Positions 900 to 58,462 of a stretch of 64,000 nt of DNA are shown one piece after another. The notes below the pieces were generated by a model, which worked only from the letters and a program-made list of their open reading frames with translations, searched no databases and was not told the origin of the DNA. The position numbers and the translations under genes are program-made. Every line of letters starts with the position of its first letter. Positions within the stretch are counted from its first letter, which is position 1. Origin of the DNA: Raillietiella orientalis (Eukaryota); contig JAYWIR010000011.1 in the NCBI GenBank assembly GCA_036172245.1, forward strand, positions 2,542,001-2,606,000, given 5' to 3'.

Positions 900-2753
900 G
901 CCACCTGGTCTTCGTCCTCGAAAAGAAGGACTCGACATCCTCGTCGGCTCAGGTTAAAGTCATCTGATTGCAGGTGACTTTAACCTACGTCTGCTGTCAG
1001 GTGCGCCGGACACACTAAGGGTCAACGACTTGTGCGCAGGAATGCACACGTGCAACTTGTTGGCCGGAGATCCAGCAATGGCGAACAGCGCTGATCACGC
1101 GTTTCTGGACCAGCATCTATGTTCACGCGTGGGCAGGCGCGACAGTCGGCAATGGTCGGAGCTGTCCGACCATTGACGACTCGTGCTCGAGGTGCATCAG
1201 CGCGACAGGGGTCCCCCCTCGAATGAGTGGCGTCTGCCAGGGGACCGAACACTCTGGGAGCCGCGGAACATTTCCGCGCGTTGATACGGGGGTTCAGTAT
1301 GCGGACACTTCCGGATTGGGACCGCTTCATGCTTTCGGTCCGGGAGTTCTGACGGACGAAGGGTCTCCTGAGAATCGCCCTTTGGGGCAGAGGAAGGCCC
1401 CGAGTCCGGCTTGCGGACTTGTGCGCTTGACGTCGGAACGGCGGTCTCGGCCTCCTGACGCTGGAGCGGCTGGAGCGTCAGTTCCAGTTCCGGATAGTTG
1501 CCTTCATGGCGAAGAATTGGAGCACCAATTGATGGGACCTTGCACGCCTCCTCGTCGAGCAGGCCACCGGCAACGCGAGACTCTCATGCTACCTTGCACT
1601 CCGGAGCCCCACCTGCCACTGCGGACTGCAGCTTCGGAGGGCGAACAAACTCGCGAGGACAAACCCAGGATGGATCTCCATCCGCCCCGCGAATGGTAGT
1701 GCCTGGCTTCAGGAAACCGTTCGCACGTGGGCGAGGAGCCAGGAGCAACGCGCGCAATAGGAGCGAAGATTCCTGTTCGCGAGGCACAGCAACTGTACGC
1801 TCCGAGAGATCCTGGAGGATCCCCGAAAACTTCCCTTGATGCAGAGCTGCCTTCCCTCAGGGAACATCTGGGCAGCGACAATGCGGCAAAATGGGAGATT
1901 GACGTGAAGATCTCTGGAACGGAGAAGAGGATCGGGAAATGGAAAACTGGCCACCTGACCAGCACTGCGACCCCCACACGGACTCTTGCGCTAGGGGTGA
2001 GCTGCTGGATGTTCCTGCAGAACATCTGAAGGGGCCCCTGGTGCTTATGAACACGCGCACCCTCCTCACGAAGTGGCAACAGTCGGCGCTTCTGGTGCCG
2101 CATTGGGTTCTCCCATGCAACGCCCGCCATCACCACTGGACGCAAGGGGGTGTAAACCTCAATAGTGTCAGGTGTGGGGAGCGAGAATGCCTCCCCACCT
2201 GTTGGTGGACTGTGTGGCCCTCCGGTCCCTCTGGGAACGCTTTGACGCGGCCCTGGGAACCCCCGCAGGCAACTTCAGGGACGCTTTAAAATCCCTCTTC
2301 GTTCGTGACGCCCTTCGGCCAGCGGCCTCCCTTGCAGCCTTGTGCTGCCTACGCGGGATCATCGCAGCCTGGAGGAAAGCAACGGGAGGACCCAGCGATA
2401 GGGATGCCAGCGAATACGCCATCCGCTTCCTGAGGATGGCGACGCGATGGCCCTACCTGGAATCCCTTATTCAGGAAGAGCTTGCCGGCAACCTCCAGAG
2501 GATGTAATGGGCCTCCCAGCAGACTGTGATCCCTTCTTGCTCCCTCGCTAGATCTTTTATTTATTTTTAACTTTTGTTTTTCTTTTTGTTTATACCTCCC
2601 TCCCTTCTGCTACCGAGGTGGACCGTACCGGTCTGCGAACCGGTGACCCGGCAGGCTTTGTACATCTAGCGCGTGGCTGGACCACTGTACCAGCCAGCAC
2701 AGATCCTCCAAATGCTGCATTAGAAAGAATAAACGCTTCGGCGCACCCGGGTG
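900..2753 (+). mobile_element. L1/Tx1-like element, internally deleted (APE endonuclease + C-terminal Cys/His domain, no RT)
   Basis: GDFN at 973-984 and SDH at 1165-1173 in the same frame. Post-RT segment 'RTKGLLRIALWGRGRPRV' from ~1351. 'RCGERE..PHLLVDC' knuckle at ~2170-2215; stop at 2505-2507; AATAAA + terminal hairpin at 2728-2753. 5' boundary approximate. Confidence 0.7.
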
Positions 2754-3668
2754 GGTATCGTCGGCGTGGCTTCTCGCGGTCACGACATCGCGGACGGAGC
2801 AGAGAGCTGCGATCAGAACGGCGATCGACATGGCGCCACGTAGCCAAGAGGTGCCTCGACACGTCTTGCGGGTTGTTCCTTGGGGGTTGTAGGACGGTAG
2901 TAAAACGCCCGAGTGACTCTCCGAAGGGCAGCAGACGCAGGAATGCTTCCGTTTCACGGTACCTGAAACAGCTTGAGGTTGCATTCCTCCTGGTCCGAAT
3001 GCCGCCCTACTGCCATGCCGTTTATCACTCCTCCCTTCCCTATCTCGCTCGATTCACTGGGGCCTCCTCCCGAACGAAGAAGAGCCGACAACACGTCCCC
3101 GGACGAGCTTAGCAAAGAACGCTCACGCGCGCACTGCCCAGTCGTGTGGATGCTGGAAGCAAGAGATGCGAAGGGGGCAGCGCGGGTCCCGGACCGGCGT
3201 TGCGAAGAGGTTGCTGCCGAGGAAGGGTCTCAGCAGCTCTTCGCCACCCGCCTTTCGCTGCGTGCCAGGAACGGTAATACCCGAGGCGGGAGTTGCCTCT
3301 TTCTGAGAGTCCATCGTGCTGAGAGGTACGCAGCGGCACGGTCGGCATGCGGAACAGCAGAGAGTCTCCAGGAAGAAAAGCTGTAAACGCAGCGGCAGCG
3401 CCCGTTCCACCTCACCCCCGGAATCCCGAGACTGCCGTGAGGCCGGTCTATGCCCTCTTTCCCTTCCCCAGTCTGTGTGTCTGCAGATCCTCCCTCCTCG
3501 CACTTCCTTCCCACTGAAATGACTGCCGTTTGACGGGAGTTTCGGTTTTTTCCCAATTGCTGAGACACTTCACCTGGGCATCTCAGGTGGTTTTTCACTA
3601 CCAGTCGACGGTTACGTCTCCCCTGCTCTGATAGTCTGAGACCCTTCCAGGCTTCCGACTCCTGGTTT

Positions 3669-5170
3669 GTACCCAGTCACGCCGAGACTTTCACTTCAGA
3701 ACGAATAAACTGCAAATCCGGGGTCCTTGGGCGTCTCCCGAGTACAAGCAAACAACAATAACAGCACGAAGTTCAACGGCGATGACCACCGGCACGTAGA
3801 CCGGCTTTTAGGGGAGTCCGGAGCACAAGGAGGCGACAAGAAAGAAGAGGGAGAGGGGACAAGATGGGGGGGTAGAGACAGGGGTCTTTGGTTTCGATCT
3901 CTCCTCTCTCCGAGAAGCGGCTGTGGATGGTAGCCATTTCCCTGAAGACTCCTTCTGACAGGTGGGGCCGTCTTCATGAAGGCGGTTGCCAGGCTGTTGG
4001 CCTTCCTCCTCTGAGAACGAAACTCCATCACCGAGAAGTCCCTGTGACAATGGCGCGGAAGCAGCATGCCGTCGCGACCATAGCGCCGCAGAAAGTCCTT
4101 GGCTGTGTCCTCCGGGTGGCAGACCGCCGAAGCGAGTCGCCACCACATGTCCTTCGTGGCACCGCGGTCCAACAGTTCGGGGAGGCAACTCCCACGCGAA
4201 CCAGGAGCCTGCGCTGGTTGCAGGGTAATCCCCTCAGAGCAGAAACAGCAAAGCATCCTGTGGTTCCTACCGCAGAGGTATCACCATAGTGTCTGCACAC
4301 GGGGGGGGAATGGTGAAGAAGGTTGCGCGTTCTTCGGGGCGCACACCGAGCAGGTCGTTCCACAGAAGGAGCCCCTTCGTCCGGGACCGAGTGGCAGCGT
4401 CCATCTATTCGCTCGTCTTGCAATGGTCGAGGAGTTTCTCGACTTCTTCAACGCTGCAGGATAAATTCCGCCATCACGCCGGTTGGCTGCTGCCGTTGGT
4501 TGTCCCGAGGGTGTGCAGTGCTGCGGCAAGGGGCGGGACGGCTATCCGGAACCGTTGAGTCCAGTCCAGCAGGATACCTCCTAGTGGTTCGCAGTGGAGT
4601 TTCCGAAGCGGAAGAAGTTCCTCTGGGAGCACTGCCAGTGTGGCAACCCAGGACTCTGGTGCCTCCTGCCGCCAGGCATCCCCGTGTTTTGAGTGACAGG
4701 GGATCCAATAGTGGGATTCCAGCAAGGAGGACAGTTTCCCTCTTGATACGCGGCAGGAACGAGAGAAGTCCTTCTCTGCCGGCGCATCCGGAAGATGAGG
4801 CTTGCTGGAACGCGCCAAACGGAGGTCCTCAATTTGGCAGGGAGTGCCAAAAGACGAAACTGCACCTGCAGTCCGACTTTGTGCAGGGAGTCAAGGAGGG
4901 GGGCGTGCAACTGTGAACTTCCAGTCAAGCAATCGCAAACGTGCAGCTCGGCTCGCGCACAGACGTCCTAACATACGCGATCTTCAGGCCCGACCTTTGG
5001 GTGGAAAAGGACGGATCTCGCCAGTGGTGGAGTCATGGAAGGAGCTGCGGTGTTCACTGCCCTCCAGCAGGGGTACTTCCTTCAGCAACTCGTTGGCCTT
5101 CTGCTTGGCCTACCGTCGCTCTCAGGCGTTCCTCCCCTCCGTGTGAAACGGAGGGAGCACAGCAATGGCA
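3669..5170 (-). mobile_element. Decayed non-LTR retrotransposon 3' portion (subfamily B)
   Basis: Terminal hairpin at 3669-3688. 3' UTR/C-terminal DNA (~3860-3920, 4200-4580) is similar to 6910-6965/7310-7650 and 56975-57035. 5' end uncertain. Confidence 0.6.
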
Positions 5171-5539
5171 GTAAAGGCAGAAAAGGAGCAATCCTTAAAA
5201 TCCATGAGTCCAGAAAGGGAATCGAGGAAAGGACTTATACACAAGAAGCAAGACAGCAGTGCAAACAGGGCTGCACATGCGTGTAACGTCCCTCGCTCCT
5301 GCAAAGCGCTGAGTCCAGTCCACCTTCGACGATGGTCCTTTTCGTGAGCATTTCCGATGACGGAAGAAGGTATCCAGGAATGCTCAAAGTGGAGACCTCG
5401 GACAACGAAGAAAAGATTGTTACTCTCCAGCAGGGGGCAGTACGAGTGACAACATTTGTCGGGATGGCTCAGAAACAGCCGTGTCGGAGATGTTGGTGAG
5501 TCGCCGGGCGAGACGAGAAGCACACGTCATCTTCCCAGC

Positions 5540-8345
5540 GTCGATGGGAGGAATCGCGGTCTCTCGCCGTCTCACTACGCCAGCGGGCCACGTGAGGGCA
5601 AGAAGAGGCCTTCCATAGCCGCCGCACTTCTCCCAATCGGTCTCGTACTCCTGCAGGGAGATTCGTGCCTTCTCCGACCAGGAGGTTGCTGGGGTCGAGG
5701 GAGACAAGGTCGGGAAGCTACAATGTCGCCGGAGCTCCGCACAACCATGTAGAGCCGCGTTTCCTTGTTTAGCCCAGGGTATAGAGGGTGGCGCGCAGAG
5801 GTCGTGTCGGCGAGGGCGGACGAGTGGACCAGCTTGCCTCCGAGTGGTCCGACTCGATGACTCGATCGACCCTGTCGCCGCGAAACGCGTACGCGCCGAG
5901 GGAACGCGTTCTTTGGTGCTCTCCAGAGTCAGTGGCTAGTGGACCACCGCTCCAAAGTGGCTCATCCCATCACGGGGGACTTCAGTGCCCACCGTAGCAG
6001 GTCCATGAGGCAAAGCGAACGAACTGCGCGCGCAGCTCGCCAGCTGGCGAGCCTGGAATGATCTCCGGATCTCGCCTTCCTCGACGAGCGCCTTCTCCCT
6101 CGCGCAGGGAGGGGGGAGGAAGAGAATGATCTGCTCTTCTCGACCGTCGCAGGTCGGGGTTGGAACTCCCTTTCCTGGAAAGGAGCTTCGTTTGGAGGAT
6201 GCAAGTAGACTGGCTCGGCCTCCCGGGAGCTGTGGGGCATCTCTACCAGTTCCTCCTTCCTTCAGCTGATTCCCCTTGCATATGCCTCCTCACATCTTCG
6301 AAGAGGGCGTCGTGGGAAGAAGCAGAGGCTTTCTGCAGGTCCGCACCTTCTCCGGGCGTGCGCGGACGTCCCGCGCTTGGAGGGCTGCGAGGCGCGGGCT
6401 GTGTCAAGTCTGGCAGTCTGGAGCAGTATGTCTGCTCGACGGCCAGGAACGCTCTTCCCCGGACGACCCACGCGTGTTGTCAGGCGCCATACTGCTCGCT
6501 GCTCGCGGGGGCCGCCTCTCGGAGCTGCTGCCGCAGGCGCATGCCCCAGCTGTGGATGAGAAGCAACACGCATCTCGGAGTCCTTCGCTTCGGAGAAAGT
6601 TCCCTCCTCCATCTTGGGGCGCTCAAGAGGATGAAGGCACCAAGTGCGGATGGCCTGTCAGCGGAGTTCTTCCGGTGCCTCGCGGAGGAGCCAGCCCCTT
6701 GGTGTCGACCCTCTCAGTGCTGATGAGGCTTGTACCCGGTCACGCCGGGACATTTATTGGAAAACAAACCACAAGTTTGAAGGGATTATATCCCTCCGAG
6801 ACACAAGAAACGCCCATACAAAAAGTTTAACCCGGAAAACCACCGACACGCAGGCTGGCTTCAAAAAAGAAGGGAACGGAAGGAGGGGACTCAAAATAAA
6901 TAAAAAAAGAAGGGAGGGTGGGGATAGGGATCTTTGGTTTGAAACATTCCTCTTCTTCTAGAAGCGCCACTTGACGATGGCTACTTCCCTGGCGACTTTT
7001 CTAGGCAGATGAGGCCACCTTGCAGCTGCCTCCATGAGGTTTGCTGCTATGCTGGTGGCATCTTTTCGCTGCGAACTTCTTTCCAGCTTACGATGGGCTG
7101 TCAGGATGGTGCGGATGCAACAGATTGTTGCGATCACAGCGCCTTTCTTCAGTTGCCTTCGCTGAAGAAGCGTTGCAGCAGGTTGATGACAGTGTCCTGG
7201 GGACGACGAGGTGCCGAAGCAAGTCTCCGTCATAACTACTGCAAGTCACTGCAGTCCAGAAGTAGGTGCGGAAGCGACTCCATCGCCTTGCACCTGAGAC
7301 AGTTTGGGGAGGCAACTCTCCCGGAAACCAGGTGCCTGCAGGAAGCCTCAGTGCAGGAACAGCGGAACATCCTGTTTTCAGCGAACCGAGGTGTCCACGC
7401 ATAGGGAAGGGATCACGAGTTCTTCAGGAGGTACACCAAGAAGTTCACTCCACCGAAGAAGTCCCTTTGCCCGGTAAGGAGGAGTGGCAGCTCTCGTTCT
7501 GCAGCCGCTCAAAAGTTTCTCGACTTCTGCAATGTTGCAGGAGAACTCTCACCCTGCCAGTTGGCTACTGTCGTTGTTTGCCCTGAGGGCAGACAGCGCC
7601 GCAGCCAAGGGTGAGACGGCTACCCGGGACCAAAGCGACCAGTCCTGGAGGATAACTCCAGCGCTGATGAGGGAGGCAGACCTTGCGCTTGCCTACTTCC
7701 TTCCGGCAAAGGTGCGTCTCCTGCCAATAGGAGGAGCCGCCCGCTGTTCCAGCTGCTTAAACGGGGGGGGGGTCCTCCTTTCGGTAGCTGGCATCCGATC
7801 ATATTGATGGATGCGGATGTCAGATTGCCCTCGAAGCTGTAGACAGCGCAGCTCGGAAGGGTGGTGGATTCCTTGGTAAGTGTGGAGCAGACATACACTG
7901 TTCCAGGGAAATCCATGAGCGCCGATCCCTTTTTCGCTCAGACTTGCAGCATCGCAGGGAAGTGAAAGCTGCGATGGGCTGCGGGAAGAGGAAGCGACAG
8001 CGGGTGGAGACTCGGAGGTCGCAGTTGATCTGCAGAATTCTTTCCGTCGGCCTCCCCCTGAATCTCCTGGAACGCCTCCGCCTTCCGGAACACTTGCTGT
8101 TCTACCTGAGCTCCTGCTGGTCATAACACGATGACGAGCATCCCTTCCAGCGTTGGTTTTCGCGTGTACGGTGTGCCTCCATACTCAGAGGCATCAGGAG
8201 GGATACCAACTTGCTCTACTTCAGCACCTTCTTCGAGTCGGTGCTAAAGGAGCGCGGACGGATGCTGGCCGACCTGCCGGCTTCCTGCTTGTGCATGCCG
8301 ACCGTGGCCGCCTATGCAGACGACCTGCTCCTCCTGCCGCCCGCG
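5540..8345 (+). mobile_element. Frameshifted L1/Tx1-like ORF2 (endonuclease + RT), interrupted by a nested insertion
   Basis: Ordered motifs: LVLLQ (~5640), NAYAP (5884-5898), ITGDFSAH (GDFS 5975-5986), KAPSADGLSAEFF (~6635-6672), WHPIILMDAD (~7790), EQTYTVPGKS (~7885), AYADDLLL (YADD 8313-8324). Confidence 0.8.
6729..7658 (-). mobile_element. 5'-truncated non-LTR element (subfamily B) nested in the RT region of another copy
   Basis: Flanked by CAGTGCTGATGAGG (6715-6728) and CAGCGCTGATGAGG (7659-7672). Minus-strand AATAAA at 6753-6758 and hairpin at 6731-6752. C-terminal peptide 'NLMEAAARWPHL'. Confidence 0.8.
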
Positions 8346-8619
8346 TCCACCCCGGTTTTCAGGCACGGGGACTTCTTCGACTCGATCCCGTCCAGGGAGC
8401 GGGCGCGCGCGCCAAAGGAAGCAAAAGCACGGCCGTCACCAGTCGGCGCAACGGGAGAGAGAGGGGGGAGGGAGAGGCAGTCTACTGGATCCGCCCGAGG
8501 GCTCTTACGAAAAAGTGTTCAAGCACCTCGGTACTCCGTCGAGCGCCTTCCGTGTCCCGTCGCAGAAGCGAGTTCAGACTTCCTTCAAAGGTCTAAAGGT
8601 GGCTATCGGTTCCCTCCTC

Positions 8620-10280
8620 TATGGTAGGTCCTGAACGCTGTCCAATCCAACCCGAGGGTGCCTGTAGTAGCTCTTCAAGTTAGGGGTTCACTCCGGGAGA
8701 GGACCACGCTGTGCATCCAGGAAGTGCTCCGGATGAAGGAGTCTTCCATTCCTCGCACGCTTGGAAGGGAACTCCAGAGGGAACTAACTCTTCCTCATTC
8801 TCTCTGAAGGGACACCCCGGTTTGTGGGGGCCGCTCCTGGAATTTTCTCCTCTGAGGAGAACTCGGAAAGGATCCGCTCCTCGTTTCCTCCTACTCTGAA
8901 GAAAAACCTCGAAGGAACGCTTCCCGATCTTCTCTGGAGGGTGCTCCCTGGAGGGAACCTGGAGGCCAACCAGCGTCGTTCTGTGGCGGGTGCTCGAGAC
9001 CCACGACTCACTCATCTCTTGATGTCGGTCGCTCCCACTTGTGAGATTCGAACCACGGCGCCTGGTGCCACGCACGGAGACCTCAGCAGCCACACAGACG
9101 CCGACGTGGTCCCCCCCTATTCAATGGAGCTCCAGGCTGTTGATAGGAGTCCTGAGGTTCGTGATAAGCCTCAAGGACTTTGTGGCTCCGCGCAAGGGTG
9201 CCGGAGCCTGACGTTGGACAAGGTGGAAAGTTCCGGACACTGGCCATCTCTCTGACAAGTTGTGAACTACCCTGTGGCGCATGCCAAGGCCTCGAAGGAC
9301 TCGTTTCCATGCCTCCGCATGACCCTCAAAAGATAAAGGAGTAAGGACATCCCGAGCAGGGTGGCGTCGACATTGGACCTTCTGCAGTCCGCGAACTTAA
9401 ACGCTTGTCTGACAGGGGTCTGAGGAAATCTGAGTGTCCATTTTCCAAGTGACCCCGGAAGAAATTCGTGACCTTGAGAACCTGCGCAGCATCCCTTTGG
9501 AAGTGCTGCTGCAGGACTCCAGGACTGGTCCAGACCAGCGGTCACACCCTACGCTGTGCAGCCTTGTCTGTCCTTAGAGTGAGCCATGGTAACATCAAAC
9601 CAGCAGGGAGGGAGTTCTTCCCCACTGAGAGACCGGCTAAGCTCGAAGAGACGGCTGGAGGACGAGCGAGCCAGTCTTACCCTCCGCTTTACCGGGTCGA
9701 GGGATGGTTTCGCTGGTGTGGAGCTCCTCGGTGCTTCCTCCACAGAACTGGTGGCCCTCTGCCCCTCCTTTGGACGCTTCGATGCTGCCTCTCAAATGGA
9801 AGCTCCAGGCAGTGCCCCTCTTTCCGCACTGGAGGCTCCAAGTGCAGAAAGGGCCTCCAGCACCTCGTTACCGGGGGAACTGCATTTCCGTGCCGTTTCG
9901 GGTGCGGGGAGATTCGAATCGTTCCCGCATCCGCTGCTGGACTGCGGAGTCCTCCAAGAAATCCGACGGAGGCTGGCACAAGTGCTGCTTCATTCAGAGG
10001 GCACCGCAAGGGCCCTGCCCGCGACACCTCCTCGTGGGCGACGGGCCTTCGGGTGGCGTCCGGATCGCGACGTGGAGCTGCGTCCGAGCCATTCCGGTGT
10101 CCGACGGCATTAGAACTACGCTCGCGGCAGCCTTCACGAGGAGCGCAGGGAGGTGATCCCATTGCGGAAAGAATTTGCCGAGGAGATCGCCTGCATGCTG
10201 CTCCAGTACTAGGAAGGAGGGAAAATCCTACCCCAAACATCCTCGTCCCGGAACCTTTTTTTATATATTTATTGCCCTTT
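8620..10280 (+). mobile_element. Subfamily C LINE derivative (degenerate endonuclease-like region + C-terminal domain)
   Basis: 8630-9100 is homologous by eye to 34870-35570 (+) and to 41460-40977/38794-38635 (-). Later peptides 'LPLKWK..' and 'ESFPHPLLDC' match the family C-terminus. T-rich 3' UTR at ~10255. Confidence 0.6.
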
Positions 10281-17800: not shown

Positions 17801-17858
17801 TGATAAATCATAATTTGTCTGTTTCGAAATAATCAAAGCACACAATGTAACTTTTCAG

Positions 17859-24613: not shown

Positions 24614-24649
24614 GTGAAAATGGATTCAGGATCCTGAATCCATTTTCAC
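24614..24649. repeat. Perfect 36-bp palindrome
   Basis: GTGAAAATGGATTCAGGATCCTGAATCCATTTTCAC equals its own reverse complement. Confidence 0.95.
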
Positions 24650-35790: not shown

Positions 35791-36387
35791 CGCTCACACC
35801 CGCCGTCCTCTTCCGCAAGCGCGCGTCGGACTCGACGCGGGTTTCACGTCGTTGCTCTTTCGTGGTCCATGACGCTTGGGATTTCTCTCCTTTCAAGGCC
35901 AAACTTCCGCGAAGGATGCGAAGGGATTCGCCCTGCAAGTGGAGAAGGCGCCTGCTTTCGAGGAACCGCACCAGTCCGAGCGTGTCCGTCTCCATTTTGA
36001 GGAAGCAGGGAGGAACGCGGTGCAGGGCTTCCACCCCCATTCCAAGAAAGATCGCGTTTCCGAGGGACGCGTGGTTTCCAAAGAAGGGGAAGGTGGGGGG
36101 GGGGGTTCGACCCTTAGCATTCCCTCAGGACGGAAGCCGATTCGTCCCTCGCCTCGGGAAACTTCTGCCCGCACTCGCATCCCTCTGGAGAGTGCGTTTC
36201 CGCCCGGTCGTTCGCTGGGAAAAACTCGACAGCGAGTCGTTCACAAAGGTGCCACCACTTCCTCGTGCTCCGTGGCAGTCTTCTGCTCGGGTCGGTCGCC
36301 GGAAAGGATCCGCGCAGGGAGAGGAAGGGGAAGGAAAACAAACAAAATAAATACCAAACGAAGAAGACACTGAACTATTTGGGGGTT

Positions 36388-39300
36388 GCTACCCGGTCAC
36401 GCCGAGGCGTTTATTTAAAAATCTTCTATATGTTTGTGGTGCAAGGCCCCACTACGGCAAACACATCATGGGACCTGCCGGGTCACCTGTACTCAGACCG
36501 ACTCGACTCTCCTCGGCAGCGGAGGGGGATAGCGAAAAAACAAAAAGAAAAATAAAACAAAAATTAAAACAAAGAAACACTTTGGAAGGTCGGGAAAGGA
36601 TTACTCTCCGCTGGGAAGGGGTTCATCCTTTTCAGGATGCCTTCGAGATCCATCCGTATGTTTCCCAGGTGGGGCCATCTGGTCACAATCCGCAGGAAGC
36701 GAACTGCAAACTCGATGGCGTCCCTTTCGTTGTTTCCTCCGATGGCATCATTCCATGCTGCCACAATACCTTCGATGCAGCAAAGTGCTGCTAGGGCTGG
36801 AGCCGGGCTCAGAGCGTCCCGAAGAAGGAGCACGAAGAGGAGCCAAAAAACATCCCTGGGGGGAGCTACCAACCGGGATCCGGAGGGTCGTCGCAAAACG
36901 TTCCCAAAGGGGCCGGAGGGCAGCGGAGTCCACTAACAGGTGTGGGAGGGATTCCTGTTCCTCGTACCTGGCACAGTTCGGGATCTCCCTCCCCAGCGTC
37001 CAGTGGTGGCGGCGCGTTGCAGGGAAGACCCAAGTGCAACAGCAGAAGCGCCGTTTCCTGCCACTTTAGGGGGAGGGTCCTCGTATCATTCATCACTGAG
37101 AGCCACTTCAGCTCATCCGTCGGGATGCCAAGCAGCTCGCCCCATCTTATTAATCCACGCGGAAGGACGCTCGGGGTCGTGGCGTCCACCAGCTGTCCCA
37201 TGGTCCAATCGCTTAACTTCTTTTCCCTGCCTGCGATTCGACAGGAGACTTGCCACCTCGGCGTTCAGCTGCTGCCAAGTACCTTCCTCAAGAAAAGCAT
37301 AGCTGTAGCTAGGGGGTCGTCTCTGCCCACGTGCTTCTGGTGGGACCTTCCAGTATGTTCCACAGTGAGCAGCGGGCGTAGTTAGAGAAGCGCAGGCAGT
37401 TCCAGCTGTCAATTCCTCATTGAATAGATCTCTGTTCAACCTCGTCCACGTGCCATCCTCTAGTCATGCGCTAGAGTTGGTGGGGCTGCATACCATCCAG
37501 ACATTCTCCTTGGCCAGTGTGGCCATGCATCCTAGGAGAAGGCCGCATCTTCTTATCTTCCGGCTGGGGCACAAAACATGAGACTCCAGTCCTTCCGTCC
37601 CGGATACACGGCGGGCGAGGAGGCGGGTGGAACGCACCAAGGGGTGCTCCAATACTTCGCTGCAATGGCCATGGCTCGCCAGAGCAGCTGAATGTCTATC
37701 CGCTCACGCGTCATGAGGCCAAGACCGCCGTCCTGACGCGGAACGCCCAAGTCCTTCAGAGGCACGAAATGTTTGGGGGAGAGGGGGGAGGCCACGACGA
37801 CACTTTTCCGAGTGTCCGCTCGCACGCAGCTCTGCGGCGAAACTTGGGTCGCGATGGGGTCTTCGCGCAAATTGCAACTGGAGGCACGGTGTTACCGTCT
37901 CCGGTGAGACAGAGCAACCGGGCACGCTCCATCCTCGGAGTCTTCCTCCGTCACCCTTGGAAGACAACCTCAGCGGCGATCCTGAGGCAAAAGACTGGCC
38001 GCAGGACAACCATCCTCCCTCAAGATAGAGTCGAGCCGTCTGCTGCTGCTACGTCGCTCGGCTCGAGATGGACCACGCACCGATGCTAAGCAGGACGAGG
38101 CATCAAGGGTGCACCTTCCTTTTTTTTTCTTCCGTCTGAGCAGCTGTCCCCGTGAAGGACCGGTCCCGGATGCGAACAGCGCGCGGTCGCACAAGATGCG
38201 CGTGGAAGGGACAGTGCTCTGTGTACAAGAGGATCTCTGTCTGGATGACGTCATGGTTCTTGATGCTGGCGCTGAAATCCACGTCTGGACTGGTGAGGGT
38301 GTTTCTTGGGAAGAGATAGGCAGAGCTGGCTCAGGATGACACCCTGACGGGACTGAGCGAAAGGACGTCGGATTCCGTGGTCGTCCCGGCAACGTCAGCA
38401 ACCTGAGGACCTCAACGCTTTCTTCCTTGTTCGGGATGAAGACATGTGAGGGAAGCGGAGATCTGTCTAACTGATGGTGTGGGGTTCCACGTGACAGACT
38501 CGAGGGGTCGCACGGCAACCAGGACTTGCGGCTAAAGGCGCCAGGGGGTCTCCTTCCTGATGCGTTGTCCACAGTGCCGGGAGATTGCGGGCGGAAGGCG
38601 ATCCGGGAGATTTCTTCGGCTAAGTCGAAGGTCACATGGCTGCTGGGGTCTCCGTGCGTGTCGCTATAAGCGTCGCGGGTTCGAATACTCAACAAGGATC
38701 GACGCTGAGAGATGGGGGGGTATCGTGGGTTCGAGTTCCTCCCGCGAGATGACTGGTCGGCCTCTATTCGGGTGCGGTACTGGTAGAAGCTGGTTGACAC
38801 CCGGAAACGCCGGGGCGTATATTTCTAGGCCTACATGTCTGTGGCAGGACGTTTGATCCTTCCACGTTACTTATGGATACGAAAGGGAGCCTGCCAGGAT
38901 CTGGCACGCAGGCCAGCAGGATGAGCCTCGGCAGCACGAGGGAAGGGAAGACAAACAAAAAGAGAAAAACAAACAAAAAAAACTCTAGTCAAAAAGGATG
39001 AAGGGAGGGGGCGGTTCGGGAAGGAATCACTGTGTGTTGGAGGGCGCTTTCTGCATCCTTGTAAGGATGCTGGCGAGTTCCTGTTTTATGGTTCCCAGAT
39101 GGGGCCATCTTGACTCTGTCCTCGTGTAGAGGACAGCAAAATGGATGGCGTCCCTGTCGTTCTGGCCTCTGGCGTTGTCTCATGTGGTCACGATCCCTCG
39201 TAGGTAGCACAGTGCTGCTAGGGATGCGGCCGGCGAGAGGGCGTTGCTCAGGAAGAGGCGCTTTAAAACGTTTCTGACGTTGTCGCCGGGGGTTCCAAGG

Positions 39301-41460
39301 GCCGTGGCCAAGCGTCCCCAAAGGGGACGGAGAGCAACAGTCTACCAGGAGGTGAGGGAAGGACTCCTGCTCCAAGCACCGTGCACAGTTTGGGTTCACC
39401 TTTCCCCCCCGTGTCCACAGATGCCGTCGGGAGTTGCACTGGAGGCCCCAATGCAGTTATCATCAACGTCGACCCCTGCCACTTTAAAGGGAGAATGCGG
39501 GTGTTCAGGAGCACCGGGGGCCGCTGCAGGTCTTCCTCCGGAAGACCCAGTAGCATGCTCCAGCGCAGAAGTCCACGAGGTCGAGCACTCGGGGTCGCAG
39601 CGTCAGTGAGCTGGCCCGTCGTGCACTCGCCCAGTCCTTTTCTCCTTCCGGAGATTTCTACAGTAACCTCCCATCTGGCCGTAAGGCTGCTGTCCAGATG
39701 CTCCCTAAGAGAGGGCAGCGCAGCGGCGAAGGAGGTTCTGTTTGCCCATGCACTCTTCGCGGGATCTTCCAGGATCTCCCGGAGAGTGAAGTTGTTGCGT
39801 GAGCACAGGAAACGTCGTCCCTGTTCCGCGTTTGGCTCCTAGATCCTCGTCCACGCGCGGACGGTTTCCTGCAACCAGGCACTGCCGTTCGCGGGGCGGC
39901 ACGAGATCCATCCCTTTTTCCTAGCCAGCGTAGCCACCTGCTGCAGGTGCAGTCCTCAGTGAATGAAACTGAGTGGACGGCGCGCCAGGAAGGACGTGAG
40001 CCCCACGCTGCCGGTGGCTTTCTGGACAAGAAGACGTGCAGATTGGAACCAGGTGGTCTTCAGAGGTTTGCCACGAGGGCAAGGGTTTGAAACTGGAGCG
40101 GCAGCTCCATTCGCTTCAGAGTCAGGAGGCCCAGGCCGCCGTCCCGGCGCGGAGCACACAAGTCCTCTAGGTGAACTCGGGACCTCCCTTTGCCCCAGAT
40201 GGCGATCCAGAGGAGGTCCTTTGTCCGCTTCCTAATGCTGCATGGTGGGCAAACAAAAAGCAAGGGGCGGAGAAAGGGAGCCATAAACGTGCCCCATACC
40301 GCGTCCCACTCCGGCAGGGAGAACCTGAGGCCGAGTGCTTTCTGAAGACGGCCGGACCAGGCTTCTGAGAGGCGAAATTCCCCCAAGGGAACTCCCAGGT
40401 ACTTTAAGTACCGGACCGTGGGGATCCCCAGGCGAATCCAGTCCGGCCGCCCTGCCCAAGATGCGCCAGCGGGAACCACGGACGACTTCGCCTTGTTCAC
40501 CACCACGCCCATTCCACGACTGAGCAGAAACCGTCGAGTGCGCATGCCGGCGTGGACATGGAGAGCAATAGCAGAAGATCATCAGCGTATGCTGAGATGG
40601 CAGGCGTGCCGAAACATACGCTTGGGTGGAGAGCCCGAGTATTCCTGTATGCCTCAGCACCAATTCGAAATAGGTGCTAAATAGTAGGGGGCTTAGGCTG
40701 TCGCACTGCCGTATGCCGCGTCGCACCGGCACGCGTGCACCGTCTGTCCGCTGAAAAAGATATTGATCAGCACGTCGCGCCAGCAGGAGCGCAGGTAGGC
40801 CATCACAGAGTCCAGGAAGCCCAAGCGTTCCAGGAGCCTCTGGTCGACGCAGTCGAATGCTTTATGCAAATCGACCACGACCTCAAGGGCTCCCACTCCC
40901 GCCCGACCTTCCGGTCCCTGGCCGACGGACGCTCCGGAATTCCGATTGCCCATCATCTTTCTTTCCTGCTGGAGCGCTGGTAGAAGCTGGTGAAAACCGG
41001 ATGTCCCCGATGAGTGGCCGGAATTGGGAATTGGTCCTCCGGGCCCCTTCCTGGAAACTGAATCAAGAAGTGGGAGTTCCCCTCCAGTTGTGCAAGGTAC
41101 GTACCATAGAGCTGGTGAATTGATGACACCTCTGCAGAGTGCATAAAGAAGCGTGCCTCTCCCTTCAAGGGATGCCCTCCAGAGAAAAATTTGGAAGCAT
41201 CCCTTCGGAGCTCTCTTCAGAGGAGCAAACAGGAGCGGTTCCCTCGCGGGTTCCCTCCTGGAGAAGAAATTCCAGGAGTCACTCCCTCCAGGGTACCCCG
41301 CCGGAGAGAATGGGGAAGAAGTGGCTCCCTTCGGAGAAAACCGGGGTGGAGATATTCCCTCCGGGATCCTCACCAGGACGTGAGGGGAACAGACTCCCTC
41401 CGGAGTCCTGCCTGGATTCATAGGGTGGTTCCCTCCATGGGTAGTCCCTATCGTGAAGGA
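36388..41460 (-). mobile_element. Host LINE copy (subfamily C 5' part, family C-terminus) split by a nested insertion
   Basis: 'FTSFYQ' is read on both sides of the duplication 38780-38794/40977-40991. Contains 'LKDLGVPRQDGGLGL', 'RTLPLKWQETALL' and 'RWPHL..GILKRM'. Minus-strand AATAAA at 36410-36415 and hairpin at 36388-36409. Confidence 0.7.
38795..40976 (-). mobile_element. 5'-truncated L1/Tx1-like element with RT remnant, nested
   Basis: DLHKAFDCVD, GIRQCDSLSPLLF, YADD (40578-40589), VNKAKS, LKYLGVPL, PRRDGGLG and CARC..ESFPHLLVDC occur in order. Perfect 15-bp TSD CTGGTAGAAGCTGGT; terminal hairpin at 38797-38818. Confidence 0.88.
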
Positions 41461-44400
41461 TGACACGCACCCCCAGGTGGCGTGCAAGGGGCTGAGGATG
41501 CATCCGGGATTTCACGAAGACACAACCCGGCGCTGAACGTCCTCGTAGAGCGTCTTGAGCTCCCCGGGATGGCGCGCTCGCGGGCCTTTCGTGTCCACCC
41601 CAGTCGAGGCGGAGAGAAGGAGCGCCGCTGGGAGAGAGAAGGACGCCTCGTCTTCCTTCTCCCTTTCTTTCTTTTGCTTGCAATTACGCTGGCACATCTT
41701 TTTTCGCCAAGCGATCGGAAAATTGGTCTTCCTTTCGTCGGGCCGGCCGACGAAAGGAAGACTTTCCGGACTCGCGCCGAGCGACAGCGCCGTCCCACAT
41801 ACCGCCCGCCCACTGCCGCTTCCGCTACTGCGTGCACGCAGAGTGTTCGCAACCGCTGCTCGTTTCCACGAGCAGCGGCCGGGAAACGCCGGGCCCCCTT
41901 GCCCTCGTGGCCGCAAGGCGAGTCGGCTGCGACGGCAACCCTTTGCCCGGAGTGTGGCGATGGGGGGGGGGGGAGGGAGCGACGACTCCCCCGAGTTCGC
42001 GAGAGCGAGCTCGCGGGCGCGGCCGAGAATGGGAGCCAGCGAACCGTCCCGCTGTCGCGCCTCTAAAAGACCTACTCGGGTCGGGGCCGGACTCATTGTC
42101 GCGACGCCTCGGTGATGCAGAGTCCCTCGGAGGAACTCCCGCAGTGTGTCACTTCCGACCTGTGCTGAACTCTCGAGAACCAACCGTTGCGGTCCTCTCC
42201 GCCGGTGGGGAAGCAGCAGTGGAGGAGCGTCCGTGGCAGCCAACTGAGGTAAGCCCGCTGCGCCGTGGGAGAGGTCGGGTGCGCCGCCACCGCCCTGCTG
42301 CTGCTGGTGGTGGTGGTTGTGGAAGCCGCCCGACTCTTCTCAGCCGCTGCCGAAGAGTCCCTCGTGGCTTCGCTCTCTTTTGCGTTCGGTCGGCGGCGTC
42401 GGTTGTCTGAGGACACCTCCGGTCTCCCTCTCGAAGGGAGGCCGCGCGCGGGGGTCGCATGTGCACGGGATCGGTGCGGCCTTTTCCCCTCCTGCTTCTC
42501 CTTCCAGCGCCTCCCGACGAGGCGCGGGCAGACTTGGCGCTTCGGGAGCACTTGACGTCATCCTCCTCCTCTTCCTGGATTGCCCCGGGGCCTGCTGGAG
42601 CATCGGAGGCGGGGCGCGGCTGCCGAGACGAGTTCATCTGGTCATCCGGAGGACGCCGCCACAGTATCGGGTGGGATTCTTCTGAGGGTTCGTCCTGCCG
42701 CTCAGCTCACCAGCGCCGCGCTCCGAGGGAAGGGAGGCTGACCCTACCGCAATCCCCACCTGACTACTCGCGGAAAGTCAGGGTCCACGGGAAGGAAAAT
42801 TCCCTTCTCCCTTCCTGATTCATTTTCTGGGTTTTCTCGCCGTTCTTCCCGACTCCCTTATCCACCCCCACCCCCATGCCTCTCGGTGCACGACGGTGAG
42901 GCTATGATGTCGAGCAACGGAGCTTCAGAGGAAAGAAAGGGGGTGGGGGATGGGAGGAATCGTCTCGCTCCCCGGCGGTTAGAAAGCCCCAGGGAGTCCT
43001 CCCATCTTCCCTCCCGAGACAGCGCTCTTCCGCGCCGCTCCTCCTCTTCTCCCGGGTCGACCCGCGTACGGTCCCGCGAGTCCCGGTTGCCCTGGGCGGC
43101 GGGAGCTTCAGCCCTCCCGCGGGGCCTCCTCGCACTGGGTGAGTCGTGCGCGCTCCCTCGCCTGGACTTCGGCGCGATTCCCAGGTGCCACGCCCCAGCA
43201 CGGTGGTGGAAGGGAAGAGGAAGGAAGAAAGGAACCCGGCCCTTCGAGACCCGGGCGTGCCTCCGCTTCTCGAGAAGGCCCTCAGCTGCCTCGAAGGAGG
43301 GCCTGAAGGCTTCGGAGCGAAAAAAGCGTCGCGGGTCGCACCCCTCCACCCTCTCGGCCACGCCTCTCCCCCTCTCGCAAGGCCGCTCCTCTCCGTCCGG
43401 GCCTCCAGGTGCCGAGGAAGAGGACCCGAGCCTTCTCGAGAAGGGGCCTGGAGTCCCGTCTGGTGGCGCTACTCCGAGCCATCGCGCGCGTTCCCGAACA
43501 ACCGCGTTGACTAAGCTGGCGGGAGGTAGTCCCGGACGCGAGGGAAGGCAGGAAAGGGTGCTGGGCAGAGGGCTGGAAGGGGAAGGCCTCCCCGAGCCCA
43601 CCGGCGAAGGGCGCGGCTCGCAGGGTGAAGAAGCCTTGGAGAGGAGGAGACGCCAGAGGCTCTCTTCTCCTTCCGTGCATCTGCTAACCACCTGAGGTCA
43701 AGGCAGCAGCGCCCAGCGGCCGTCCGGGTAACGCCAGCCAAGGGAGTCCAGGGGTTGGGAGGGGAAGTTTCCCCTCCGTCTCCTCCTTTTTCGGCTCTCC
43801 CCGTCCGGAAGCCATCGCGTCCTGGGCCTTTCCTTTCGTGCGTTCCTCCAGCGCGGTGGTGCGCGCTGTCGGTGAAGGGTGGCCCCGGGGCCGGGCGCGC
43901 GGTGACCCACATTCGTCCTCATCTCCGGACCTGGTCGGTGGCGGATCCGATTGGGCAGACTCAGGGATTTCACACGTCGGGCGCCTGGGCGGCCGCGCGT
44001 GTCATCGGGGGCGCAGCGCTCCGCGACTTCCCTCGGGGCACCGCGGTGCGGACCCGGGCGGAACCTGGAGGGGGCGTCGTCGAAGAGACGGCGTGCGGTT
44101 TCCTCGTCAGTAGAGGAGGATGGACGAACCAGCTGCCTCGCGGACGCCACTTCCGTCCTTGTCCGGACGCTTTCCGGACACACCCTCCCGTTGCCCGGGC
44201 GACAGCGGAGGCCTGAGAGGGTCGTCCACGCCGGGCCACACCTGCCAAGGGGTGGATCCGTCGTCCGGGCCAAGAAGCGGGCGGGAGGCAGGCAGCTCTC
44301 TCCTCTTCCACCTCCCCTTTTCTTCCCCCGGCGAAGGGCAAAGGACGCCCTCCCATCAGGTCCACAGTCGCAGGGAAAGAGGAGCCCCTCACCCAAGCGG

Positions 44401-44588: not shown

Positions 44589-44661
44589 GTTTCCGTAGTG
44601 TAGTGGTAATCACGTTCGCCTAACACGCGAAAGGTCCCCGGTTCGATCCCGGGCGGAAACA
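44589..44661 (+). tRNA. tRNA-Val(AAC): tRNA-Val (anticodon AAC)
   Basis: 73 nt, GTTTCCG...CGGAAAC acceptor stem plus discriminator A; A box TAGTGTAGTGG; anticodon AAC at 44622-44624; B box GGTTCGATCCC. Confidence 0.97.
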
Positions 44662-44689
44662 GGTTTGGCCTCCGTGAGCGCGGAAGTGC

Positions 44690-44694
44690 TTTTT
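44690..44694 (+). terminator. RNA polymerase III terminator (T5)
   Basis: First run of >=4 T downstream of the tRNA. Confidence 0.7.
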
Positions 44695-54766: not shown

Positions 54767-56297
54767 CCACGTGTCAGAGGCGGGCGCGCGTTAGTCAGTC
54801 CGGCCGTCCCCGTTCCCCCCTTACGAGGTCGCTGCAGCAGGCAGGAGCAAGGGAGGGGCAGAGGTACGCCGGAAGGGACGGAAGGAAAAAAAAAAAAGAC
54901 AAAAAAAAGAAAAGCGCCGGCAGGGAGTCGCCTCCTCCCCATTCCTCCAGCTCGAGCTGCGCTCCCTGCCGCCCTCTCCACCAGGCCACGATGGCGCCCC
55001 ACTTCGCCCTTCGCAGGGCGCGGGAGGATGCCCCAGGATCCCGAAACCGCCGCCGGATCCCTGGGGCGCCCAATGAAGGCACCGTGCGCGCCATTCCGCC
55101 TCGCCACGTTGTCGGCGAGGTCCAGCGGGCGGTGCTTCCTCGGAGGCATTTCGGGAACGCCTCCGCTCCAGGGTGTCTTCGACACGAGGAGAGGAAAAAA
55201 AAAAAAAAAAAGGTCACCCGAAAGTGACCCTGCGAACGGAAATAAAGAAGGAAAGGAAGAGGCAGATGCCCGTGGGCACGAGCTGGAACTTTCGCTCGGG
55301 CGGGAAGCAGCCGCAGCTCCGGCAAATTCCGGCCCCATCTGAGCCGGAGATCCGGATTGGGGGAGGGGGCAGGGAAGGGATCGAGGAACCGCCGCGCAGG
55401 CCCCAAGCCGCTAGAGCGTTTCTCCCCCCGGGGTATTCGCCTACCGGGCCGGAACGCGTGGATCTTGCCCTCAGTCGGAGGGAAGGGGCGAGCCAGTCTC
55501 CACACCCCCTGGCCTTCTTGTGGCTGAGGTCGAAGCAGCCAACAGCAGCGGTGTTTTGCCCTCTGCTCTCGCTTTCTTCGGGGAAGAACGCAGGAGGCAT
55601 CCGCCAGTCCCTCATCGGGCTCGCCCCGCGACCGGGCACGCGCTCTCTCGAGGGTGACGGGGGAGGCGCCGTCGCCGTCCATGGGGGTGGGGGGAGATTG
55701 CAGTTGCTGGCGATGCTGAGAAACAGGGCGTCACTAAGGCGCCTCCCGCTCGCCGCATGCGCCTTCGCCTCCAGCGGGCAAGAAATGTCTTTCCACGGCG
55801 CGGCGCGGTGTCGCTCTCCCGCTCCCTGCAATCCCCGTTAGCGCAAAGCGCCCTCGGATGCGTGTTGGCGTGTCGCAACGCTCGCCCTGCCCACGGGAAA
55901 CAACAGCAACGCGCCTCGTTTGAGAAACGCGGGCGCGGGCGCAGTGCACGTTGCTGCGCGTTCGGCGTGCGCGATTCGTGCTGCTACAGATAGACAGCGC
56001 CAAAACGGGAAGAGTCAGAAACGAGCGATTAAGTTAACGGATGCACGCGCGTAACCGCCGTCGGGCCTGTCGTCCCTGCACCCTTCCACCCCAGGCACTG
56101 TCCTCCCTCAAGGTCCGCTCCCCCTGGAAACCGTACCGTCGACCCTGTCAGACCATTCCCCGGATCGAGCTCGAGGTCTGTACGCGCGACAGGGGTCCCC
56201 CTCGAATGCATGGCGTCTCCCAGGAGACTGGGTGAACCTCCCGGGAGCCACGGAACACCTCCGCGTTCACATGGGGTTTCAGTCTGCAGACGCTCGA

Positions 56298-56515
56298 TTT
56301 TCACCCGGGTGCGCCGGAGTGTTTATTTTTCAATAAACTTATCACTGAAAAAAATTATGGTTAGACTAGCGGTCCAACCACGCCCAATTTAAAAGAGACA
56401 TGCCGGGTCCACATCTCTCCTCGTCCAGTGATGACGGCGCGCATTTCATGGGAGACCCCAATGCAGCACCAACAGCGCCGACAGAACCTTTAATCGTCCT
56501 GTTCCTGGATGGCAA
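56298..56515 (-). mobile_element. Short 3'-end insert of the hairpin-terminated LINE family
   Basis: Minus-strand AATAAA at 56322-56327 and hairpin at 56302-56321; host homology resumes at ~56516. Confidence 0.55.
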
Positions 56516-56800
56516 GTTTTGCTTGCCGGAACGGGCTGTGGTGTGGAACACGTTCGTGCCCCCCCCCCCTTTTCTCCCCTTGCTTTTATTTGCCCCCCAC
56601 ACTGCGGTGTAAAGAGACGGACAAAGGACCTCCTAATGATCGCCCTGTGGGGCACAGGGAGGCCCCGAGTATGGCTGAAGGACCTCTGCGCTCCGCGTCG
56701 CGACGGAGACCTCGGCCTCCTGACGCTGGAGCGGCTGGAGCTGCAGCTCTAGTGGAGGACACTCGCCCTTGTGGCGAAGTTGTGGAGCACCATCTGGTTC

Positions 56801-57255
56801 CCACCCGGGTGCGCCGGGGTGTTTATTTCTAAACTATCCGAGAACAGAGTTCTCGGACAAAAGACAGAAAAACGAAGGGAGGGCTCCTCGACACGCAGAT
56901 CGGTAAATCCGAAAGTCCGGAACGGGAGGGAGGGGACCACAAATACACATATAAAAAAATATAAATAAAGATATGGGGAGGGGAGGGGACAGGGGTCTTT
57001 GGCTTCGGCCGTTCCTTTCTTTCAGAACCGGCGTTGGATGCCGGAGATCTCGTTCCTTGCTTGTTCTGGAAGATGAGGTCACACGGCAGCCGACGTCATG
57101 TTGTCGCCGGCTATTCCGGTGGCCTGTCGTCGAATCGCCTGTGTCTCCAGCTCTTGGTGGGCCTTGTCGATGGCGCGGGTGCGACACACCGTTACGAACA
57201 CCGCACCTAACGATAGGCCGCCTGGTGTGAAGAAGCGGCAAATGGTGTGAGCCTG
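56801..57255 (-). mobile_element. 5'-truncated subfamily B insert
   Basis: Minus-strand AATAAA at 56822-56827 and hairpin at 56802-56821; 56975-57035 resembles 6910-6965 and 3860-3920; host homology resumes at ~57260. Confidence 0.7.
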
Positions 57256-58462
57256 AACAACACCTGGTCCAGAGAGCCAGCTGCTGCGCGGGACTGTGTA
57301 CCTTCCTGGCGCGCCGCAAACGTCGGTACCTGTTGAACTGCGGACTGGAGCTCCGGTCAGTGGTCAAGCTGACCAGGATGAACACCTGAATCTCCTGCCG
57401 GCCCGCGAACGGTACTGCCTGGTTGCAGGAAAGCCTTCGTACATGGGCCCAGAGCAAGGAAGCGAGTCCGTTGTTGCAGCAGCGACTGCTGCACTCCTTT
57501 TACAACAGCCGCTCGCTGCAGGACATCATCGTGCAGCCCGCCTCGCGTGCGTGGACTGAGGGGACCTCCCCAGCCACGTCTCTGCCCTACCTCAGGGAGC
57601 ACCTGGGCAGTAGCCAACCAGGGAAATGGGAGGTCCGATGTAGAAGCCCTACCAGAGAGAGGGAACACAGGCCAGCTAACTGACGATGCGACCCCAAGTG
57701 CCCCACCGAAGGGACTATTGCACTGGAGCGAGCTTCTGAGCATCTCGCTGGAAGTACTCGAGTGGCCCCCAGTGCTGAAGACTATCCGGGCCCTCCCCCC
57801 GAAGAAGCAGGAGTCGGCGTTTCTGATGTTGCACTGGGGACTCCCCAGCAACGCCCACCGATCTCACTGGACGAGGGGAGCTGTGGACCCGAGCTGCGTC
57901 AGGTGCGAGGATCCCTCCCGCACCTGCTTATTGACTGTGTTGCCCTCCGGCCCCTGTGGTTGCGTTTTGCAACGGCCCTAGGTGCACCCATGAACAATCT
58001 CAGAGAAGTGTTCAAGCGCCTCTTTGTGCGCGATGCTCTTTCGCCTGCCTCAGCCCTAGCAGCCCTTTGCTGCCTACGTGGGATTGTGGCGACCTGGAGC
58101 AACGCCACTAGTGGACAGCACGATAGGGACACTATTTGCTTCGCCCTGGGCTTCCTGAGGACGGCAGCCTCATCTGGGGCATACTCAGATGGAACTTGCC
58201 GGCATCCTGGAAAGGATGTAGAAGACGGCCTGCAGCGGAACGTGATCCCTTCCCGAGCCCCCTTCCCTGTCTCTGTAAATAGCGTTCTTTTTTTCTTTTT
58301 CTTTTTGTTTGTCCCCTCCCCTTCCACTGCCGAATCGAACCTCGCCGGCCTGCGTGCCGGTAACTCGGAAAGTTCCGAACTGTCTCGGATGTTGTAGGGC
58401 CGATGGCCCTACACATGTCTCTTTGTTTCAAAACAAACGCCCCGGCGCCCCTGGGTGTCAAA

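Follow-up and report, generated by a model that had tools for sequence, protein, structure and literature searches.

LINE 3' ends in the window and in the genome

The window analyzed here, a 64,000-nucleotide stretch of the Raillietiella orientalis genome (contig JAYWIR010000011.1, positions 2,542,001 to 2,606,000), contains eight 3' ends of long interspersed nuclear elements (LINEs), each closed by a 30-nt cassette in which a polyadenylation-signal hexamer is followed by a short stem-loop with the core arms CCCGG and CCGGG (Table 1). A preceding sequence-only reading had described these sites as eight copies of one LINE family ending in a conserved hairpin, and all eight of its strings were present in the window at their positions and on their strands. 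The hexamer AATAAA is intact at five sites and reads AATATA, AACAAA, and AGTGAA at the remaining three. The core pattern had eight matches in the window compared to 0.40 expected, a number reached in none of 100 shuffles, and in the 210-Mb genome it matched 3,766 times versus 617 for a reversed control. A strict pattern, AATAAA-NNN-CCCGG-CNNNN-CCGGG-T, was found 1,791 times in the genome and not once in the control, and, together with the eight window sites of the core motif, this establishes the motif as real. Upstream of every window site lies the C-terminal part of LINE open reading frame 2 (ORF2), on the same strand; thus, the sites are all LINE ends as claimed, but they represent many subfamilies with ORF2s ~50-75% identical and not a single family. 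The window copies are decayed and 5'-truncated, and intact relatives occur elsewhere in the genome. The upstream untranslated regions (UTRs) are indeed poorly conserved, the last 160 nt being 42-62% alike between seven subfamilies, versus 47 +/- 2 for shuffled sequences. A known structured RNA was considered, namely a look-alike of 5S rRNA helix IV, and was rejected since no window site matched Rfam at E values up to 5. Likewise, a Helitron-like or other terminal-repeat element was ruled out by the upstream ORF2, which encodes an apurinic endonuclease (APE) and a reverse transcriptase (RT), and by target-site duplications (TSDs). In other organisms, the strict pattern was found at eight metagenome loci (~3 distinct contexts), none with a nearby ORF2 match, and these were taken as chance.

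Across divergent subfamilies of an L1/Tx1-like group, the cassette marks the exact 3' terminus, since TSDs start just after the stem. In the window, three TSDs of 14-15 bp and a weak one of 8 bp were identified, and no A-tail is present at the ends that they define. In full-length copies, the TSD begins 6-7 nt after the stem and measures 12 bp in L158 and L170, both of 5.95 kb, 9 bp in the 5.91-kb L161, and 10-12 bp in L152 and L153. A survey of 175 distinct ends returned a candidate TSD of at least 11 nt at 47 of them, with a stem-to-TSD gap of 4-7 nt and, for the majority, a TSD starting at +6 to +7, longer gaps being beyond the reach of the search and some of the 11-mers possibly arising by chance. 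Insertions end in the stem followed by TGNN and one to three A's, directly at a TSD of ~9-16 bp. Counted from position +5 with a detector that mildly favored A at +6, the A-run was 1-3 nt long at 163 of the 175 ends, absent at eight, 4 nt at three, and 10 nt at one; six or more A's from +5 occurred at only two of the 1,791 strict ends genome-wide. Young, intact copies of 5.7-6.0 kb are tail-less as well, as the sequence-only reading implied.

The two tailed copies bear on how these ends arise. In one, 14 A's come straight after TGT, and the TSD measures 11 bp and is without these A's in its 5' copy; the other has five extra A's (after TAAG) ahead of a 15-bp TSD, again with no A-run in the 5' copy. 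Since neither run comes from the target, the element RNA appears to be polyadenylated at the end of the hairpin. No A precedes the cut in the target of L158, L170, and L161 (subfamilies D and E), and the final AA must therefore derive from the element. These junctions are most simply read as products of an RNA that is cleaved and given its poly(A) 21-23 nt downstream of AATAAA, with reverse transcription normally starting within the first A's. If so, the hairpin would be no substitute for poly(A) on the RNA, the tail would mostly not be copied, and, with no tail stored in the DNA, each copy would need AATAAA to regain one. The possibility that the hairpin belongs to the target was dismissed because TSDs begin after it and because 10 copies of the short interspersed nuclear element (SINE) targeted by subfamily A lack it, both at the empty target site and at the SINE's own 3' end. 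Two further arrangements were seen. At L046:3661-3710 (+), the end of a rarer subfamily carries an 11-A run after TGG without a clear TSD, and the run may be tail or target sequence. In L063, L064, and L152, a second element lies in the TSD directly behind the first, placing two cassettes 220-1,100 nt apart.

Conservation and decay of the stem-loop

To describe the hairpin across the lineage, we used 20 subfamily representatives, hand-picked from ends found with the motif. All 20 share the cassette although their UTRs are near random similarity, and a seven-pair model with one bulged base left 96% of cells paired, compared to 25-50% in slid registers. The core pairs are invariant among the representatives, and the one double change affects an outer pair. 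Thus, a conserved 3'-terminal stem-loop, as is characteristic of stringent LINEs, is found across families.

According to the sequence-only reading, every change in the core stem was a C/T swap that leaves a G-U pair. This was not borne out by subfamily A, for which 30 copies were collected by upstream homology and 29 used, one being without the UTR. Changes in its stems comprised 11 G>A, eight C>T, five G>T, and three C>A; nine of the 29 stems were intact, in three the only changes were to wobble pairs, in 16 a pair was broken or deleted, and one had another standard pair. The stem had diverged by 0.098 versus 0.108 for the UTR, with AATAAA the least diverged part (0.047). Genome-wide, the third stem pair showed C>T in 131 copies and G>A in 111, doubles included. 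Since 13 of the 100 G>A copies listed show both changes, there are ~117 single C>T changes versus 98 single G>A changes, the latter pair-breaking. Stem changes after insertion are therefore ordinary, two-sided CpG decay, and the G-U-preserving pattern in the eight window copies is an ascertainment effect; symmetric decay in subfamily A and at the third pair rules out G-U-only drift as evidence of pairing. Such CpG decay had been anticipated as an argument against a functional hairpin, and it does describe the inserted copies, but pairing is supported by other evidence.

That evidence comes from the loop and from a sister family. The loop had been described as always CGNNN; however, by our count its second base differs in 33 of the first 100 listed strict matches, with CTTGA, CATAT, CTCAC, and CTTAT recurring. 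Loop length ranges from 4 to 6 nt with the arms unchanged, and both a 4-nt loop on a 6-bp stem and a 6-nt loop are variants fixed within subfamilies. The argument that the arms pair, as these sequences suggest, rests on the loop-length variants with fixed arms and on the different hairpin found at the same position in family H (see below). Within subfamily A, four of 29 copies (L037, L050, L058, and L059) carry deletions of 5-10 nt inside the hairpin, one of them removing exactly the loop. Slippage between the two CCGG repeats, or an RT that skipped a folded stem, possibly produced them.

Coding capacity, sister family, and insertion targets

The intact loci (L151-L170) encode ORF1s with CCHC knuckles and ORF2s of ~1,200 aa. 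A domain scan of the intact ORF2s returned Exo_endo_phos and RVT_1 only, i.e., APE and RT without RNase H, and zf-CCHC matched weakly in one of the four own-lineage ORF1s scanned. The closest solved protein was the human L1 ORF2 protein (ORF2p; E 3e-40, compared to 3e-17 for R2), to which a C-terminal C..H..C stretch could be aligned at a level that was not significant. Named relatives were 24-33% identical, while protein P0146 (~60% identical) falls inside the lineage. In quick RT trees built with no labelled outgroup (12 near-redundant rows were dropped from one, and one row was lost at trimming), the lineage formed its own long-branch clade among plant, vertebrate, and tick RT matches, with SH-like approximate likelihood ratio test (SH-aLRT) values of 99-100 and a base that the trees did not resolve. 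No Tx1-labelled protein was among the relatives retrieved for comparison, and look-ups in the ESM Atlas, NCBIfam, and clusters gave no L1-versus-Tx1 label. The elements have the broad architecture of the L1 group, with two ORFs and an ORF2 that combines an N-terminal APE, an RT, and a likely C-terminal CCHC motif without RNase H. In addition to their TSDs, they bear the variable 5' truncation of target-primed insertion (element lengths of ~50 nt to 5.9 kb), and they show the target-sequence preference common in the Tx1 clade. The poly(A) or simple-repeat 3' tail typical of the L1 group is lacking, save for the two ends noted above. Judged by its sequences, the lineage is a divergent radiation of APE-RT LINEs, L1/Tx1-like in the broad sense.

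A second LINE family, family H, occurs beside the intact copies. It is 27-32% identical to the hairpin lineage and grouped as its sister in a quick tree (SH-aLRT 96). In all 16 copies read (14 of them chosen among 40 matches listed), the 3' end consists of a hexamer, 4 nt, a different hairpin, and AAA, after which the target begins at once. The hexamer is perfect in 14 of the 16, the hairpin reached -13.2 kcal/mol in the two copies folded, and the copy in L164/L192 has a 13-bp TSD at both ends. Its insertions lie antisense in the ORF1 of LINEs of the hairpin lineage, and it also occurs as tandem arrays. Since its layout is the same and its stem sequence is different, family H supports conservation of the architecture over that of the stem sequence.

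The sequence-only reading missed that target sites are subfamily-specific. Several subfamilies occupy a fixed nucleotide of their own in a SINE or in sibling LINE ORFs, mostly antisense, or insert in their own TSD to form tandem arrays. By our count in the alignment, 25 of the 29 subfamily A copies sit antisense at one nucleotide of a tRNA-headed SINE, which accounts for the homology that extends past both ends of these copies; since they differ in truncation point, they represent independent insertions. Fixed sites were likewise recognized for at least seven further end types. In sibling ORF2s, type E lies just after the QEIH motif of the endonuclease (five of five non-tandem copies of that UTR type), type B ~six codons beyond it, type D in the GDFN codons in sense orientation, the tetraloop type in the linker (seven of seven assigned), and the 6-nt-loop type in the DLHKAF region of the RT. 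Subfamily B also ends exactly at many unrelated targets, and D, E, and H form head-to-tail arrays with units separated by one TSD. TSD alleles vary between copies and agree within a copy, which argues for separate events, although segmental duplication may account for some clustered copies that share a site. LINE or SINE sequence flanked 36 of 80 ends on contig 1 versus 49 of 200 random positions at the same loci, which is weak evidence; the fixed insertion nucleotide, and not general flank enrichment, is the real targeting signal.

Among the window copies, related ORF2s host elements 3, 6, 7, and 8 in antisense orientation (7 in 8, and 8 in 6), the SINE hosts element 5, and no target was assigned to elements 1, 2, and 4. 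The SINE was also considered as a tail-sharing partner and rejected, since it is a target instead and the 10 copies examined have no hairpin tail. This SINE-like repeat of ~750 nt, with internal CCCTTCGGGG-type repeats, has two further window copies at 8650-9027 (-) and 34804-35225 (-), in addition to that in Table 1, and a second end type (loop CGTGT) also inserts in it, at other positions. Intact copies are clustered in dense nests and tandem arrays of 5.8-6.0 kb on small contigs and contig ends of the genome (e.g., C26, C32, C53, C96, and C143; L151-L170), reminiscent of Zepp clusters. GC-rich (55-69%) repeat zones of the window flank an AT-rich gene block at ~14000-32000 (31-41% GC), partly CpG-depleted and free of these LINEs. 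At 9731-10260 (+), weak similarity to the ORF2 C-terminus of a more distant LINE was seen, with no AATAAA-hairpin cassette in 9950-10450.

Table 1. LINE ends, elements, duplications, and genes; positions are those of the window unless a locus is named
Feature	Position	Strand	Remarks
Cassette 1	2728..2757	+	AATAAA 2728-2733; core stem-loop 2737-2751; 6-nt end
Element of cassette 1	probably 949-2757	+	internal deletion, APE part joined to late ORF2
TSD of element 1	941-948 / 2758-2765		weak, 8 bp; short, could be chance
Cassette 2	3666..3695	-	degenerate hexamer; stem-loop 3672-3686; 6-nt end
Element 2	extends to at least ~4958		5'-truncated; TSD looked for, none found
Cassette 3	6729..6758	-	element 6729-7658
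TSD of element 3	6715-6728 / 7659-7672		14 bp, one mismatch
Host of element 3	~5532-6699 and 7711-8453	+	ORF2 of related LINE; element 3 inserted antisense
Cassette 4	36386..36415	-	5'-truncated element extending to at least ~37858; no TSD found, no recognized target
Cassette 5 (subfamily A)	38795..38823	-	element 38795-40976
TSD of element 5	38780-38794 / 40977-40991		perfect, 15 bp
Target of element 5	38647..41487	+	tRNA-headed SINE-like repeat, ~750 nt; head 38647-38794, body 40977-41487, split by LINE
Cassette 6	56298..56327	-	element 56298-58577; interrupted by element 8
TSD of element 6	56284-56297 / 58578-58591		14 bp, one mismatch
Host of element 6	~56133-56283	+	endonuclease-RT linker of related LINE; element 6 antisense
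Cassette 7 (subfamily B)	56798..56827	-	short element, 56798 to ~57240, antisense within ORF2 of element 8; no TSD found
Cassette 8	58432..58461	+	element ~56490-58461, antisense within C-terminal ORF2 of element 6; TSD not definable
Family H	L191:2244-2281 (+), L192 (-), L201-L214; 5' parts in L155 and L164		young, tail-less, site-specific
C2H2 zinc-finger protein gene	17851-19785	+	AT-rich gene zone
Nup153-like nucleoporin gene	29409-32365	+	24-nt tandem repeat, 7 copies, 30951-31117; AT-rich zone
tRNA gene	44589-44661	+	
Long leucine-rich repeat protein exon	48870-51671	+	GC-rich part

Formation of the 3' end and comparison with other LINEs

Considering these results, the 30-nt cassette that ends these target-primed, L1/Tx1-like elements is probably a poly(A) signal combined with an RT-positioning tag. 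Host cleavage and polyadenylation factors would read AATAAA, cut ~21-23 nt downstream, i.e., 3-5 nt after the stem, and add poly(A). ORF2p would then bind the hairpin through its invariant CCCGG/CCGGG core, one bulged C, two outer pairs, and subfamily-specific, C-led loop, and would begin copying at the nick in the target, within the first one to three A's. The insertion site may be set by the APE domain, by analogy with Tx1-type elements. The sequence-only reading had likewise proposed a stringent RT-recognition or 3'-end signal; the exact, shared 3' end agrees with this and RT recognition appears to be its best explanation, although the G-U argument put forward for it was wrong.

Several observations weigh against this interpretation. 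No covariation was detected in the core stem of the 20 representatives, with 345 of 500 shuffles matching the observed pairing, and sequence-specific binding without folding is therefore also compatible with the data. The hairpin is modest (approximately -9 kcal/mol for the cassette alone), and in a context of 61-66 nt its z-score fell below -2 at only one of 10 ends, with L157 preferring another fold. At the third stem pair, doubles were roughly twice as frequent as independence predicts (13 of 100 listed, with ~6 expected in all), an excess that can be explained by mixed copy ages. The polyadenylation step draws on two copies only, and the grouping of family H as sister joins two long branches in a quick tree. 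Finally, the one SINE examined (10 copies) shares no tail with these LINEs, no genome-wide search for other SINEs having been made.

Among the alternatives, read-through priming, as reported for R1Bm, would have the RNA run into target sequence and anneal to the nicked strand, with the hairpin serving mainly to bring AATAAA closer to a cleavage site within the target. It would account jointly for the exact ends and the subfamily-specific sites, and off-target insertions often do match the canonical target in their first 3-5 nt. We nevertheless think it unlikely, since in both tailed copies the A-run stands right after the stem and not 10-15 nt into the target, the 3' copy had the canonical base in just one of four TSD pairs mismatched near the junction (judged by eye), and subfamily B ends exactly at many unrelated targets. 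The hairpin could instead be a 3'-processing element only, by which structure or sequence aids cleavage and polyadenylation or RNA stability while the RT starts at the base of the tail by other means, e.g., pairing of the primer with the first A's. The position of the hairpin, which in both lineages falls exactly between the hexamer AATAAA and the point of cutting, would fit, as would the low divergence of AATAAA in subfamily A. Relaxed L1-type priming on poly(A), however, leaves long, variable tails, which are nearly absent here (two of 1,791 ends), many targets do not begin with A, and the subfamily-specific loops are as expected of a tag for a cognate protein; this explanation, too, strikes us as improbable. 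It is very improbable that no structure is selected and that the palindrome is incidental to an inherited sequence tag or to the inertia of one lineage, as the missing covariation, symmetric decay of inserted copies, and weak folding z-scores might suggest, since 10 stem bases are unchanged beside UTRs near random similarity, the arms stay paired through loop-length changes, family H has another hairpin at the same place, and neutral decay of dead copies is expected and uninformative on selection in active ones.

The preferred reading, of a poly(A) signal joined to a positioning tag, can be extended, but only tentatively and to a point where we doubt it somewhat more than we believe it. The hairpin may act as a molecular ruler on a polyadenylated RNA, with ORF2p docking on it and cDNA starting a fixed 5-7 nt from the stem, such that the tail is skipped. 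The architecture would then be older than the hairpin sequence, and subfamily loops would be cognate address labels in a guild whose members enter one another's endonuclease, linker, and RT codons, each at a single nucleotide. If true, this would amount to a natural panel of orthogonal pairs of RNA tag and DNA target in an L1-type enzyme.

Recognition of a 3' stem-loop and targeting of transposons by transposons are already known from other LINEs. UnaL2 and ZfL2-1/ZfL2-2 are similar in having a 3'-terminal stem-loop just before the RT start, in which the stem is conserved, the loop varies and is specific to the family, and one C is bulged (PMC1636434, PMC4176376). The bulged C is required in UnaL2 (PMC1636434), and L2 ORF2p reads the stem generally and the loop specifically (PMC4176376). 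These elements differ in belonging to the L2 clade and in that binding was shown for them, whereas here it is predicted. Furthermore, the 3' end of UnaL2 carries TGTAA repeats, and a SINE has the same tail (PMC3747384), whereas the present lineage has no repeats, a fused AATAAA, one to three A's, and no partner among 10 copies of one SINE. Among L1-type LINEs, the maize LINE1-1_ZM group ('monocot 1a') and L1-1_CR of Chlamydomonas also have a conserved 3' end, and that of monocot 1a folds as a hairpin across diverged families (PMC3472496, PMC3747384). However, the stem in monocots covaries and is found in SINEs too, whereas here the stem is invariant, the genome is that of an animal, and the tail is almost never copied (PMC3472496, PMC3747384). 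Poly(A) ends were described for 224 of 233 flowering-plant L1 families and for L1-1_CR (PMC3472496, PMC3747384). A stem-loop has also been proposed in the 3' UTR of human L1 (PMC5135761), and Ohshima proposed that stringency is ancestral in the clade (PMC3472496).

With respect to targeting, Tx1L in Tx1D, Tx1-Mar in Mariner-N4_AMi, Tx1-8_Crp/Tx1-4_AMi in long terminal repeat elements, and Keno, Kibi, and Koshi similarly occupy fixed sites in other repeats, and tandem copies sandwich a TSD (PMC4494074); targets differ in that they are here a tRNA-headed SINE and sibling LINE ORFs. The word 'stem-loop' does not occur in the main text of that Tx1 paper (PMC4494074). Zepp and ZeppL-1_cRei (= L1-1_CR) of green algae are L1-clade elements that likewise insert in copies already present, giving nested clusters in which 3' ends abound (PMC8226300), but Zepp and L1-1_CR have poly(A) ends (PMC3472496) and their described nesting is in themselves, whereas here copies are tail-less and several subfamilies cross-target. 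R1Bm and SART1 of the R1 clade are also site-specific APE LINEs in which the 3' UTR governs the RT start (PMC7265360). SART1, unlike the present elements, copies a long poly(A), and R1Bm uses downstream target sequence, against which the two tailed copies argue here (PMC7265360). Literature searches, which reached few subscription journals, returned no paper on a Tx1 3' stem-loop, tick Tx1/L1 elements, or LINE-into-LINE targeting.

What sets the present elements apart is the combination of an animal L1-like lineage, an AATAAA fused to a hairpin, a tail that is almost never copied, the lack of terminal repeats, and subfamilies that cross-target one another. Animal L1-type elements are the textbook 'relaxed' LINEs, which copy poly(A). 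How an L1-type ORF2p recognizes its RNA and chooses the first templated base could be tested in a lineage that has intact ORFs, a 3' tag of 30 nt, precise junctions without a tail, and numerous variants of the loop, and the subfamily-specific DNA targets of the present lineage provide a natural series for the specificity of APE endonucleases. Such a lineage would also allow the idea that stringency is ancestral in the clade to be tested.

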